Notes: a model not told the origin generated them from the sequence alone. 13,560 nt of DNA from an uncultured archaeon (GCA_964426185.1 CAYRPF010000080.1:1-13560); one strand, 5' to 3'. Positions 2,609 to 6,395 are shown, counted from the first letter of the stretch. Program-made: numbers and translations.

Positions 2609-2959
2609 ATGAATGAAACACCCCCCCTCCCATCTTCTGTTGATTCTAATCAGAATACTGTAGCAAGTCCATTTACGGGCACCTTATACCGCTTTGAAGT
2701 GAATCGTTGGATCAAAACAAATGACTTTCAACCTTCAGATGTAGTTGTTGTCTTGGATGAACTTCAAAATAGGTTGTACTATTATGAAGGAAACGAAACA
2801 TCCGCTCAAGATCATCAAAGTGCAAAAACAAATCTTATTCGGTTTCAAAATTCCTATCCTGATCTAACAATAATTCGAATTGAATCCCTTCAATCTAAGC
2901 AAAAAAGAAAGATCCCAATCGAAGTTCTTACCTATCTGAATTCACACCAGAAACGTTAA
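2609..2959 (+). CDS. Single-domain gelsolin/villin-like protein (putative actin regulator)
   Basis: LYRF...DFQPSDVVVVLDELQNRLYYYEGNETSAQDHQSAK follows the gelsolin-repeat pattern (L-n-s-x-D-hydrophobic-LD....iy-x-W-x-G..ss..E...A). GAGGA upstream of the ATG. Confidence 0.62.
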   Translation: MNETPPLPSSVDSNQNTVASPFTGTLYRFEVNRWIKTNDFQPSDVVVVLDELQNRLYYYEGNETSAQDHQSAKTNLIRFQNSYPDLTIIRIESLQSKQKRKIPIEVLTYLNSHQKR

Positions 2960-3072
2960 ACAATCTTTAAAAATAGAGAGAATTTATTGATCTCATTATA
3001 ACGAGTGGAAATCAGATTGATGCTTTCTTCTTTCCTAAGGTTATAGATAAATAAATCTCGAAAAAGGATACG

Positions 3073-3080
3073 TTATAAAA
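3073..3080 (+). promoter_or_regulatory. Putative TATA box (TTATAAAA) preceded by purine-rich BRE-like sequence
   Basis: CGAAAAAGGATACG-TTATAAAA, about 30-45 nt upstream of the candidate starts at 3112 and 3127. Confidence 0.4.
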
Positions 3081-3126
3081 CTCTTAAATTGTTACTGATC
3101 ATTGCACATACTTGGAGAACGTGTTC

Positions 3127-4011
3127 ATGTTAATCTTAACATATTTTAATCCCATCATCGGTCCCGATATCCTATATAGTGTCCCTCCAGATCTAGAAAA
3201 GCTTATCACAGAAAAAGATCTTGGCCAAATAAAGCGGTTGATGGATACTGCTTCTCCTGGTTTTTTTACTCATGCTTTCTCTGCCAGCTTGAATACAGCC
3301 AATTATTTTTTTATGATTCCCTCGGACTGGGCTCGTGGAAAGCAAGAGATGGTGATGATTACCAAAATTATCGAAGAAGAATCACCTAATCTAAAAGCAT
3401 ACGCCCAAAGGTTTCAGGAATTTGCCCAAGAGCTAAAACAAAATCAAAAATCTATTTTTAAAGCATTATATATTAATAATCCACCGTTAAATTACGAAAA
3501 GGAAATATTCAATGAATTCAGATACCTCAAGATAAAATTCGAAGAATTGGCCAAATTTTTTGAGATTAGTCAAGTTCAAACCCACGGAATCCTACTACCT
3601 TTCCGAAAATTGGCAGAAGATCATGCCATTCACCTCCCATCCCAAATGGTTAAGGAACTTGAATCTTTTTTGGGGGAAAGAGAGAATTATTTTGTGGTGT
3701 TTCAACGGAGAAAAGATTCTTTCAAAGTAGACATTCTACCCCATGAAGGCAATCAAGTGGTGAAGTTTGCGGTATTATTCAACGGAACATTAAGTCCGGA
3801 AACCCTCAAGCAAATTGGTTTAGTTTTTCAAGAACTGGGACTTCCCTTTGTGTATACTTCAGGAATTTGCCAAAAAGGCGGTCAATGTATCTATGAAGTA
3901 TACTTAAACCCTAAGGAGATGAAAGATTTTGAAGCCACAAAACAACAGTTGCTGAAAATTGAGCAAGTAGATGAAGTCAAAATTATCGACATTGAACTTC
4001 TGTTAACATAA
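3127..4011 (+). CDS. Longin/uDENN-like (folliculin/NPRL2/SMCR8-type) N-terminal domain, possible AbrB-like swapped hairpin, C-terminal ACT-like domain
   Basis: N-terminal LILTYFNPIIGPDILYSVP resembles the NPRL2-type F-x-P-x-x-GP-x-I-x-x-x-VP start. FMIPSDWARGKQ resembles the folliculin FFIKDSLARGFQ segment. The last ~85 aa have a beta-alpha-beta-beta-alpha-beta ACT pattern ending LLKIEQVDEVKI. ATG at 3127 with GGAG upstream is preferred; TTG at 3112 is the alternative. Confidence 0.7.
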   Translation: MLILTYFNPIIGPDILYSVPPDLEKLITEKDLGQIKRLMDTASPGFFTHAFSASLNTANYFFMIPSDWARGKQEMVMITKIIEEESPNLKAYAQRFQEFAQELKQNQKSIFKALYINNPPLNYEKEIFNEFRYLKIKFEELAKFFEISQVQTHGILLPFRKLAEDHAIHLPSQMVKELESFLGERENYFVVFQRRKDSFKVDILPHEGNQVVKFAVLFNGTLSPETLKQIGLVFQELGLPFVYTSGICQKGGQCIYEVYLNPKEMKDFEATKQQLLKIEQVDEVKIIDIELLLT

Positions 4012-4030
4012 TCATTACCTTCTTTCCCTC

Positions 4031-4066
4031 TTTAGAGTTTTTTAGCGTCTTTTAGCGTTTTTTAGG
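4031..4066. repeat. About 3.5 tandem copies of a 10-bp unit TTTAG(A/C)GT(T/C)T between convergent genes; probable T-rich terminator region
   Basis: TTTAGAGTTT TTTAGCGTCT TTTAGCGTTT TTTAGG is directly visible. Confidence 0.75.
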
Positions 4067-5058: not shown

Positions 5059-5070
5059 TCTCTCCTTAAA

Positions 5071-5682
5071 TTAAATTTCACTGTTTGCATTTTGCGGGGG
5101 AATTAAATTCTGAGAATTTTCTGGTTGTTTATCTTCTTGATTTTCTCCGGGCTGAGATGAAGATGAAGTTGATGGGGGAGATAAAGGTGGAGATGATAGG
5201 GGAGTTGAAGGTGAATAGGAAGGCGAAGGGGAATTTATTTGTAAAAATCCAAGAAAACACCCTAAAAACAGAATCAACGCAGTAATAATCAGGTAAATTC
5301 CGGGCTGATTCCATAAATACGGTGTGTGATCTTGAAATATTTGGCTCAAAAAAAGTGTGGTCAAATTCAAATCCAAGAACAAAATCAAATAGAACCCTAA
5401 TTTTTGGGAATGTATAAATTTGGAAAGAAAAATCCCAAAAATTATCATTAATCCTCCGTTTATGAGAGGAATACTGTAAAGAAATCGCTCCCAGCCTTCA
5501 CCAACAACTTGGAACATCAATATCAGCGGAAAAAAGGAAGTCAAAGGAACTAACATAGATATCCACCATAAAATACCACTTCCTATAAACCATAAGCGTA
5601 ATTGAAGGATTAATTTTCCGTTTTTCCTTCTATTGGTTTTTTCCCCTATTTTTTTCGGTTCACCTGATCTCGATGGATTCAT
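5071..5682 (-). CDS. Hypothetical membrane protein (about 4 TM helices, basic N-terminus, Ser/Pro-rich disordered C-tail)
   Basis: Four hydrophobic stretches. Ends 12 nt before the wHTH-Yip1 start, so probably co-transcribed with it. Confidence 0.75.
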   Translation of the reverse strand: MNPSRSGEPKKIGEKTNRRKNGKLILQLRLWFIGSGILWWISMLVPLTSFFPLILMFQVVGEGWERFLYSIPLINGGLMIIFGIFLSKFIHSQKLGFYLILFLDLNLTTLFLSQIFQDHTPYLWNQPGIYLIITALILFLGCFLGFLQINSPSPSYSPSTPLSSPPLSPPSTSSSSQPGENQEDKQPENSQNLIPPQNANSEI

Positions 5683-5806
5683 TTATCATCATAGGTTCAT
5701 CATGATAATCTACATTTTAATATTTTTATTATTCACATATTCATTTACTTTCCAAAAAGTCTAGCATTATAAGGAGAAAAAAAAATACTAATAACAAGAG
5801 CTTTCG

Positions 5807-5825
5807 GATCGATAACATTTCGATC
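5807..5825. promoter_or_regulatory. Inverted repeat GATCGA-N7-TCGATC just upstream of the GTPase start
   Basis: Perfect 6-bp arms at 5807-5812 and 5820-5825, GC-rich in an AT-rich divergent intergenic region, ending 12 nt before the ATG at 5838. Confidence 0.4.
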
Positions 5826-5837
5826 GGGGTTAAAAAT

Positions 5838-6395
5838 ATGTCTAAACTAAGAAAACAGTATAAATTTAAAGTTCCATTATTTGGTTCTCAAAATGTGGGA
5901 AAAACTAGCCTTATCATTAGATTCATCAAGCAAACATTCTCCAGTGATTTAAAACAAACCATCGGAACAAATTTCTTGATCAAAGATGTGGAAGTTGATG
6001 GAAATGATGTGCGATTAATGCTTTGGGACATAGGAGGACAAGCTCAATTTTCATCCATGCGAAACATATATTTTAAAGGTTCTCAAGCAGCTATCGGCGT
6101 ATATGACATTACAACTCCAGAATCTCTTTTACGTCTTCCAGGTTGGATAAGTACTCTTAAAAAAGCGGCGGGAGAAATCCCTTTGGTCTTGATAGGTAAT
6201 AAAGTAGATTTAGAAGAAACAGATCGTCGGGTGGCACGATCGGATGCACAAGAACTAGCAGATCGTTTGAATGCAGTGCATTTAGAAACTTCTGCGAAGG
6301 ATGGGACGAATGTCGAGGAGATGTTTATGCAAGTAGCGCGTAAATGCTATGAACGTGCTTTAGAGATCGAGAAGGAACTGGAAGGAATAGAATAA
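5838..6395 (+). CDS. Rab-like small GTPase (Ras superfamily)
   Basis: G1 GSQNVGKTS, G2 QTIGTNF, G3 LWDIGGQ, Rab-like switch II FSSMRNIYFKGSQAAIGVYDIT, G4 GNKVD, G5 ETSAK. No C-terminal CC/CxC/CaaX motif. Confidence 0.95.
   Translation: MSKLRKQYKFKVPLFGSQNVGKTSLIIRFIKQTFSSDLKQTIGTNFLIKDVEVDGNDVRLMLWDIGGQAQFSSMRNIYFKGSQAAIGVYDITTPESLLRLPGWISTLKKAAGEIPLVLIGNKVDLEETDRRVARSDAQELADRLNAVHLETSAKDGTNVEEMFMQVARKCYERALEIEKELEGIE

Follow-up and report, generated by a model that had tools for sequence, protein, structure and literature searches.

We analysed a window of 13,560 nucleotides, contig C80 of a 3.26-Mb, 155-contig Lokiarchaeial (Asgard) genome (GCA_964426185.1, CAYRPF010000080.1:1-13560), in which a longin protein carrying an ACT-like domain (longin-ACT protein) is encoded close to a Rab-like small GTPase. 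Among named organisms, its closest homologues are found in Candidatus Harpocratesius, Lokiarchaeum ossiferum and Promethearchaeum syntrophicum and, going by the nearest of them, the source genus is predicted to be Harpocratesius. Five consecutive open reading frames (ORFs) on mixed strands lie at positions 2609-6395 and encode a gelsolin-like protein (116 amino acids (aa); 2609-2959, + strand), the longin-ACT protein (294 aa; 3112/3127-4011, + strand), a winged helix-turn-helix (wHTH)-Yip1 protein (327 aa; 4075-5058, - strand), a protein with four hydrophobic, putatively transmembrane (TM) segments (4-TM protein, 203 aa; 5071-5682, - strand) and the Rab-like GTPase (185 aa; 5838-6395, + strand). 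A sequence-only reading of this DNA had listed the same five genes on mixed strands, which was confirmed, and its domain calls for all four eukaryote-like proteins hold, at least at the level of fold. The arrangement predicts three transcription units: the gelsolin-like gene followed by the longin-ACT gene, the 4-TM gene followed by the wHTH-Yip1 gene, and the Rab-like gene alone with its own promoter and leader.

The longin-ACT ORF opens with a TTG codon at 3112; orthologues align from its residue 6, i.e. from the ATG at 3127, which gives the 294-aa protein (3127-4011). Its AlphaFold2 (AF2) model (predicted local distance difference test, pLDDT, 88.9) is made up of a longin domain at residues 1-150 and an ACT-like domain at 208-294, joined by a helical linker that includes a beta hairpin. 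Residues 1-150 show the beta-beta-alpha-beta-beta-beta-alpha-alpha order of the longin fold, with strands at 2-8, 12-19, 45-50, 56-65 and 73-82 and helices at 29-41, 89-106 and 124-146. The closest structures found with VIA were FLCN (6nzd_H, Z 12.8, root-mean-square deviation (rmsd) 2.6 over 137 aligned residues), NPRL2 (8fw5_B, Z 12.1), a Lokiarchaeal longin (8yqg, Z 11.8), yeast Npr2 (8adl_S, Z 11.2) and SMCR8/C9orf72 (Z ~10), with Lst4 also among the matches, while the top Foldseek match was NPRL2 of GATOR1. A GP motif, Gly12-Pro13 (3160-3165, + strand), stands at the start of longin strand beta2, and Arg70 (3334-3336, + strand), a candidate arginine finger, lies in a (W)ARG loop between beta4 and beta5; both are invariant across 27 orthologues and paralogues. 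In a comparison of the family profile with the PDB, the best match was human NPRL2 residues 10-41 (E 0.27, by itself not significant), in which the GP motif aligns to G20-P21 of NPRL2. Because the offset of +8 to NPRL2 numbering is common to this hidden Markov model alignment and to the structural range, Arg70 would correspond to NPRL2 Arg78, a placement made from the constant offset and not from a residue-level superposition. The combination of GP motif and arginine finger marks the longins of eukaryotic GTPase-activating proteins (GAPs) and a class of Asgard longins, and the motif is absent from non-GAP longins (PMC12290439); Asgard NPRL2-like longins were described by Liu et al. (preprint 10.1101/2020.10.19.343400).

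The ACT-like domain is ferredoxin-like, with the order beta-alpha-beta-beta-alpha-beta (AF2 strands 210-219, 241-248, 253-260 and 281-290; helices 224-237 and 269-276) and matches the C-terminal domain of NikR and the ACT domains of PGDH, aspartate kinase and Rel with Z 9.8-10.8, although the fold is generic and ribosomal protein S6 and the MgtC C-domain score alike. Its beta2-beta3 hairpin carries Cys248 and Cys254 in the motif SGIC-x5-C-IYEVY (3868-3888, + strand), invariant in 26 longin-ACT orthologues; most stand-alone ACT-like paralogues retain the cysteine pair, which one subgroup has lost. The fold is shared with CASTOR1-type ACT sensors and with the metal-binding C-terminal domain of NikR (Z ~10-10.8), and its presence in a protein that would regulate a GTPase pathway of nutrient type is reminiscent of the sensing of amino acids by ACT domains upstream of GATOR. 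In contrast to these sensors, the conserved SGIC-x5-C-YE-Y residues are found in the beta2-beta3 hairpin and not in the usual ACT ligand loop.

The Rab-like GTPase (5838-6395, + strand) has complete G1-G5 motifs (P-loop GSQNVGKT, T41, switch II WDIGGQ, NKVD and SAK), matches Pfam Ras at 1.3e-47, and the best 60 of its 861 PDB matches are all Rabs, headed by Rab21, Rab12 and Ypt1/Rab1 at ~1e-35. It shares the complete motif set and the catalytic glutamine with Rab1/Ypt1, Rab5, Rab21 and the Asgard Rab-like GTPases (PMC10933270), but reads WDIGGQ instead of WDTAGQ in switch II and lacks a C-terminal cysteine motif and a hypervariable tail. The protein ends in EKELEGIE, its sole cysteine is internal (residue 170), and no CC, CXC or CAAX motif was found at the C-terminus of the window protein or of any of 11 aligned orthologues; we therefore call it Rab-like and not a Rab. 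We also observed that in 9 of 11 genomes of family f1 (see below) the Rab orthologue lacks any in-frame ATG, GTG or TTG ahead of the P-loop. These nine share a strong GAGGAG/GGAGG box followed 6-9 nt later by ATT (L014:3246-3248, L015:9114-9116, L016:6707-6709, L020:2787-2789, L022:10493-10495, L030:7729-7731 and L017-L019 of genus g6), exactly at the codon where the window (5835-5840) and the complete genome G001 of the same genus have ATG; in G003, an ATG stands two codons before the ATT of the orthologue. This pattern points to a conserved ATT start and hence to low or regulated translation, and automatic gene callers would truncate or miss the Rab-like GTPase in P. syntrophicum and L. ossiferum.

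In the gelsolin-like protein (2609-2959, + strand; AF2 pLDDT 84), a proline-rich disordered N-terminus precedes a gelsolin fold at residues ~22-116. In structure it comes closest to Thorarchaeota ProGel (7c2f_D, Z 10.6, rmsd 2.4, 83/88 residues), and the top 18 VIA rows are all of gelsolin type (1p8x_A, Z 9.8; Loki 2DGel 7whg_G, Z 9.3); further matches are gelsolin G4, Heimdall 2DGel, adseverin, villin and ADF-H folds. Foldseek gave 74 matches at E ≤ 0.001, those listed being gelsolin, villin or adseverin, alone or with actin. The protein resembles Asgard ProGel, 1DGelX and 2DGel (PMC7444086; PMC9433394) in its single gelsolin domain of ~90 residues, but it is too divergent for Pfam Gelsolin (no match to PF00626 at E ≤ 0.1) and its usual W-x-G reads Y-E-G. 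A genome-wide PF00626 search at E ≤ 1 matched contigs C127 and C4 and not the 2609-2959 gene, a homologue search with the 116-aa protein recovered its own cluster alone, and searching the PDB by sequence with the gelsolin-like protein, the longin-ACT protein or profile A1 at full length gave chance-level matches only. Regulation or binding of actin is a candidate function. The gene lies 152-167 bp upstream of the longin-ACT gene in the same direction, and the same order on one strand, with gaps of 19-176 bp, was found in every case in four genera and one metagenome contig, which suggests that the two proteins are probably co-expressed. As a side observation, the orthologues of other genera are longer (228-263 aa; L016:3546-4247, L017:9101-9787, L018:10494-11195, L019:10460-11167, L030:10537-11328 and L072:156-926), and in genera g4 and g6, the latter including P. 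syntrophicum, they carry about four extra C-terminal TM helices, a reading that covers the loci other than L072. Unlike the known Asgard gelsolins, these long forms look like membrane-anchored gelsolins; the word "transmembrane" is absent from the main text of Akil et al. 2020 (PMC7444086).

On the opposite strand, the wHTH-Yip1 protein (4075-5058) consists of a Ser/Glu/Lys-rich N-terminus, an ArsR/DUF7347-type wHTH at ~46-115 and a Yip1-like region of about five TM helices at ~160-322 (hydrophobic segments ~162-193, 199-229, 242-260, 262-294 and 304-322). The wHTH matches Pfam HTH_5 with 28.1 bits against a cut-off of 22 (residues 56-94), and among 15 orthologues DUF7347 was listed for all 15 and HTH_5 for 14 (listing threshold E ≤ 5). 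The window protein did not match Pfam Yip1 even at E ≤ 1; PF04893 was matched by 4/15 orthologues (best E 1.6e-9), and Yip1-bearing clusters are among its Atlas structure neighbours (TM-score 0.67). The nearest Atlas structure neighbours are wHTH-TM proteins of Bathyarchaeota (TM-score 0.77-0.78); therefore the wHTH-TM design is not tied to Rab-bearing organisms. The 4-TM protein (5071-5682) has four hydrophobic segments and a Ser/Pro-rich C-terminal tail, and no family was found for it, the Atlas searches (best feature score 0.85, structure TM-score ≤ 0.48) giving no usable lead. Its gene comes first and the wHTH-Yip1 gene second, 12 bp apart. In families f1 and f3, the ORF ahead of the wHTH-Yip1 orthologue encodes a 4-TM protein of 132-163 aa, and in the f2 genome this place is taken by a shorter hydrophobic ORF of 102 aa with three segments. 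Since the two genes stand in tandem in every f1 and f3 locus examined, we regard them as an operon. The divergent region between this operon and the Rab-like gene (5683-5837) contains an A/T-rich promoter-like box and a ~50-nt leader with a G-rich ribosome-binding stretch; a search of the divergent Rab/4-TM regions of 10 genomes for an operator common to families found none, the sole candidate being a 6-bp inverted repeat in the window leader. Most simply, the pair would be a membrane-tethered ArsR-type transcription regulator of a class found outside Asgard too, and it may control the shared divergent promoter region.

The longin-ACT family is linked to small GTPases well beyond this locus. 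A longin-domain profile search recovered 554 clusters at 50% identity, and among the best 150 of them 31 carry a GTPase domain C-terminal to the longin and 16 are longin plus ACT-like; all seven longin-GTPase fusions scanned with Pfam are of Arf type. In a split paralogue the two parts are separate genes, the first coding for a longin protein (415-492 aa) and the second for an ACT-like protein (145-162 aa). In three f4 genomes, a gene for a Gtr1/RagA-type GTPase (E 1e-23 to 1e-28) stands 200-350 bp from this pair in divergent orientation; in G014, G010, G011 and G003 (f2 and f1) the distance to such a GTPase is 1.2-2.1 kb, and in G004 and G009 no GTPase was seen near the pair. Of the distant longin-ACT proteins, P0131 and P0080 are encoded ~250 bp from and divergent to an Arf/Gtr1_RagA GTPase of 402-403 aa on four contigs, P0132 lies 3 bp after a 182-aa Ras/Arf GTPase, P0064 has a Ras-like GTPase 2.5 kb away and P0154 has no GTPase in the visible 5 kb. 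In genus g13 (f3) and genome G018 (f4), the longin-ACT orthologue itself lies 270-620 bp from other Ras-like GTPases. The genome of the window holds 44 Ras-family matches in 3.26 Mb, about one per 74 kb, so that for a random gene the chance of having a GTPase gene at most ~2 kb away, to its left or right, is roughly 6%; judged from this rough density, the recurrence of GTPases beside longin-ACT genes in unrelated contexts exceeds chance.

Several further arrangements of this kind were observed. The triad of a Gtr1/RagA-type GTPase (~320 aa), an NPRL2-type longin and a Cys-pair ACT-like protein (~150 aa) recurs across families (L054:7454-10427, L057:6424-9562 and L058:7558-10751 in f4; L060 and L061 in L. 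ossiferum and P. syntrophicum), and by analogy it is arguably closer to a Rag/GATOR-style system than the window locus. Elsewhere in the genome of the window (C71:6651-10919), a stand-alone ACT-like paralogue (C71:7395-7853) stands between two small ORFs whose N-termini look roadblock- or longin-like by eye, with a small GTPase gene (207-aa ORF, Ras-family match E 9.6e-9) 2.5 kb away, and this may be another instance of ACT-like, roadblock/longin and GTPase genes together. At the distant longin-ACT/Rag-like GTPase loci, the next downstream gene encodes a large TrmB-type wHTH protein of 824-853 aa (L065:7319-7522, L066:3402-5963, L068:4461-6956, L069:3910-6384); a wHTH regulator is thus again found near a longin-ACT/GTPase pair, which may be coincidence.

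We located the orthologues of four genes of the block in 40 relatives from four families of one order (f1-f4, f1 being the family of the window), which are kin and not independent genomes, and counted a gene as linked when the Rab orthologue lay within 10 kb on the same contig, using as denominators the genomes where both were located. The longin-ACT gene was linked to the Rab orthologue in 12/12 genomes of f1 (7/7 genera), 0/1 of f2, 0/6 of f3 and 0/2 of f4, and the wHTH-Yip1 gene in 9/11, 0/1, 13/17 and 0/3, respectively. Two control genes of the block were also followed: translin was linked in 9/11 (f1), 16/19 (f3) and 2/3 (f4) genomes and the cytidylyltransferase in 7/10, 15/20 and 4/4, neither being located in f2, a linkage far wider than that of longin-ACT. 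As these controls, which have no conceivable tie to a GTPase, are equally linked, conserved proximity is not diagnostic here and reflects inherited block synteny. The stretch is part of an old, slowly rearranging Lokiarchaeia gene block and not a dedicated five-gene machine. We accordingly rejected the f1-wide longin-Rab adjacency as proof of coupling, the control genes of the block behaving alike. Two features do reach past the block: the tandem order of the 4-TM and wHTH-Yip1 genes, and the placement of the longin-ACT and Rab-like genes, which are 1.8 kb apart in the window and 94-223 bp apart on one strand in G003, G004, G009 and G010, where the 4-TM/wHTH-Yip1 operon no longer separates them. 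Between the Rab orthologue and the operon, the f3 genera g9, g15 and g16 have one to three multi-TM transporter-like genes (421-466 aa), and in g13 the two are directly divergent (f3 loci L035-L045). In G001, the closest complete genome, ~6 kb of small ORFs separate the Rab and 4-TM genes (L046:7274-12662) and ~2 kb are inserted between wHTH-Yip1 and longin-ACT (L013:7537-9520), spreading the cluster to 9.7 kb, probably due to mobile or repeat DNA.

The functional core of the locus would be the longin-ACT protein, whose longin domain most likely binds a GTP-loaded small GTPase and inserts Arg70 to speed GTP hydrolysis. The ACT-like Cys-pair domain would dimerise the protein and gate it by a small ligand, a metal or the redox state, and in f1 the Rab-like GTPase, whose gene lies 1.8 kb away in the window, is the obvious candidate substrate. 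We consider it probable that some small GTPase is regulated by the longin-ACT protein, a view favoured by the fusions, the split paralogue and the distant loci. The narrower claim, that the protein is a GAP with an arginine finger and that in f1 its likely substrate is the neighbouring Rab-like protein, is evenly balanced, as the partners elsewhere are Rag-like, Arf-like or of the C12 type described below and the Rab orthologue is unlinked in f2-f4. NPRL2 (GATOR1), FLCN (FLCN-FNIP2) and SMCR8 (C9orf72-SMCR8-WDR41), the catalytic longin subunits of eukaryotic GAP complexes, are the closest known systems, next to the published Asgard "NPRL2-like" or "Folliculin-SMCR8-type" longins (10.1101/2020.10.19.343400; PMC12290439). 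With them the longin-ACT family shares its best structural matches, the GP motif before beta2 with an invariant arginine ~58 residues on, and genomic and fusion links to small GTPases that are Rag-like at paralogous loci. It differs from them in being a single small protein, of putative GAP activity and with no significant Pfam sequence match, which carries an ACT-like Cys-pair domain instead of a DENN or NPRL2 C-terminal region, and in having a Rab-like GTPase, not a Rag or an Arf, as its neighbour in the window.

A number of results weigh against a GAP acting on this GTPase. In eukaryotes, a longin GAP pairs two different longin proteins in a heterodimer, and the window was found to hold no other longin gene, catalytic or not; the longin-ACT protein may instead form a homodimer through its ACT-like or its longin domain. 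No Pfam family, NPR2 and Folliculin included, was matched by the longin-ACT protein at E ≤ 0.1, nor was any Pfam ACT model by its ACT-like domain, and no demonstration of GAP activity in an archaeal longin was found in the literature searched. The fused GTPases are Arf-like and the neighbours of the split paralogue Rag-like, neither being Rab-like; the neighbours in g13 and beside P0064 are orthologues of a GTPase encoded at C12:22114-22665 in the genome of the window and unlinked there, so the ancestral partner may not be the Rab-like protein of the window. Outside f1, a longin-ACT gene lies near the Rab orthologue (46-64% identity) in 0/9 genomes, so that the orthologue occurs in f2-f4 with no linked longin-ACT gene, and translin and the cytidylyltransferase are tied to it as widely as the proposed partners or wider. 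A prediction of the complex of two longin domains (residues 1-150) with GTP, Mg and the Rab-like protein, with row-matched alignments of 11 genomes as input, returned ipSAE values of 0.00 and 0.02 against a mark of 0.32, and we count it neither for nor against the pairing.

These points leave room for a purely inherited proximity, in which the longin-ACT protein regulates an unlinked Arf-like, Rag-like or C12-type GTPase and the Rab-like protein has other regulators. The restriction of the longin-ACT/Rab linkage to one family, inside a wholly syntenic block, fits this explanation, as do the kinds of partner at other loci, the many alternatives among the 44 Ras-family matches of the genome and the finding that GTPase genes of P. 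syntrophicum are generally outside operons with longin genes (Tran et al. 2024, PMC10933270). We nevertheless think it rather unlikely, since longin-ACT members adjoin small GTPase genes in several unrelated contexts, above the rough 6% per locus, and the f1 pair survives the loss or relocation of the intervening genes, becoming directly adjacent on one strand. TRAPP core, Mon1-Ccz1 and DENN longin proteins are guanine-nucleotide exchange factors (GEFs) or platforms, as are roadblock proteins. Most longin domains fall into these classes, as noted for eukaryotes in the introduction of PMC10933270, which again speaks against a GAP; the longin-ACT protein could thus bind a small GTPase as an exchange factor or a dimeric platform, its arginine being structural or ligand-binding, and Fuzzy-Inturned, Mon1-Ccz1 and the AP sigma/mu subunits are indeed among the lower-ranking fold matches. 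Three GAP-type longins, however, are the best fold matches, and the GP motif, reported absent from non-GAP longins (PMC12290439), is invariant together with the arginine, so that a non-GAP role appears distinctly unlikely.

The sequence-only reading had gone further and joined all five genes in one module made of a Rab-like switch, a longin-ACT regulator, a wHTH-Yip1/4-TM receptor acting on transcription and a gelsolin as actin effector. From this proposal the list of parts stands, as does the relation of regulator and switch between longin-ACT proteins and small GTPases, borne out by fusions and by paralogous and distant loci; nothing beyond inherited block synteny was found to back the inclusion of a membrane receptor that acts through DNA binding or of a cytoskeletal effector. 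The five genes do lie within ~4 kb in genera g1, g4 and g6, in two families (9/11 genomes of f1 and 13/17 of f3) the operon neighbours the Rab orthologue in divergent orientation, and in G004 the operon stays 1.6 kb from the longin-Rab pair after the rearrangement. The TM domain is Yip1-like, and a protein receptor would be sensible for a Rab-like protein with no lipid anchor. Eukaryotic Yip1, however, binds Rabs through their prenylated tails, and the absence of a C-terminal cysteine means that this mode cannot apply here. The window gene resembles eukaryotic Yip1/Yif1 and prokaryotic PF04893 proteins in its about five TM helices, in the PF04893 matches of its orthologues and in adjoining a Rab-like gene, but it differs from Yip1/Yif1 in the fused N-terminal ArsR-type wHTH and in the unprenylatable neighbouring GTPase. 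Yip1 domains are moreover common in organisms that have no Rabs: PF04893 matched 11/14 control genomes, all bacteria or non-Asgard archaea, and proteins that join a wHTH to a Yip1-like part occur in Bathyarchaeota clusters. Against the single module stand also the same or wider linkage of translin and the cytidylyltransferase to the Rab gene, the transporter-like genes inserted between Rab and operon in g9, g15 and g16, the lack of a gelsolin-like gene at the f2-f4 loci examined and the lack of an operator common to families in the divergent region. In L. ossiferum (G010), a wHTH-Yip1 orthologue was found neither at E ≤ 1e-8 nor at the locus, though the longin-Rab pair is kept. The module is therefore very improbable in our judgement. 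Neighbourhood conservation, which the earlier reading had named as a check, gave a divided answer, with the longin-Rab pair kept in all f1 genomes and wHTH-Yip1 in f1 and f3, but with the controls equally linked, and its caveat that proximity may be due to chance was correct.

Asgard NPRL2-like longins (10.1101/2020.10.19.343400), their GP motif and arginine finger (PMC12290439), Asgard gelsolins (PMC7444086) and Rab-like GTPases (PMC10933270) are already known. In the literature searched we found no description of a longin fused or paired with an ACT-like Cys-pair domain, of the recurrence of longin-ACT genes beside Rag- or Ras-like GTPases or of a TM-anchored gelsolin form, and the orthologues of P. 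syntrophicum and L. ossiferum are nowhere mentioned there by their locus tags. Pairing Asgard small GTPases with GAPs or GEFs is hard, their genes generally not being in operons (Tran et al. 2024, PMC10933270), and the GTPase partners of Asgard longins with GP motif and arginine finger were recently posed as a question (PMC12290439, Traffic, 2025). Our data offer testable pairs from lineages of which two species are in culture, namely longin-ACT with the Rab-like protein, the split longin/ACT-like proteins with a Rag-like GTPase and the longins that carry an Arf-like GTPase by fusion. If an arginine-dependent GAP activity proved true, sensor-coupled longin GAPs would predate eukaryotes, which would bear on the origin of Rag/mTORC1-style nutrient signalling. 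A tentative idea, which we hold to be somewhat doubtful, is that nutrient sensing in the style of GATOR1/folliculin had its archaeal forerunner in the combination of longin, ACT-like domain and small GTPase. Far more speculative, and very improbable on the present evidence, is a pathway of the Promethearchaeum/Lokiarchaeum/Harpocratesius family in which an ACT-like sensor would act through the arginine-finger longin GAP and the anchor-less Rab-like protein on the Yip1-like DNA-binding receptor, coupled to a (membrane-anchored) gelsolin; if true, it would be a prokaryotic circuit in which a small GTPase couples a metabolite signal to transcription and to actin. At the same time the results call for caution, as a conserved neighbourhood alone is weak evidence in these genomes, in which gene blocks are inherited whole.

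Rfam and tRNA scans of the window gave no matches, and at E ≤ 0.1 Pfam assigned no family to the gelsolin-like, longin-ACT and 4-TM proteins or to an 81-aa protein encoded in the flanks. The five genes are flanked by genes for an inositol-monophosphatase/APS-kinase fusion, a CDP-alcohol phosphatidyltransferase and this 81-aa ORF, and further by those for MaoC, GpsA, translin, an epimerase, a cytidylyltransferase and a P-type ATPase. Genes of lipid head-group and backbone type are abundant in the block (69-2172, 6495-8075 and 9995-10444), namely the inositol-monophosphatase/APS-kinase fusion, the CDP-alcohol phosphatidyltransferase, MaoC, the bacterial-type glycerol-3-phosphate dehydrogenase GpsA and the cytidylyltransferase, and the phosphatidyltransferase and cytidylyltransferase keep their linkage to the Rab-like gene across families.

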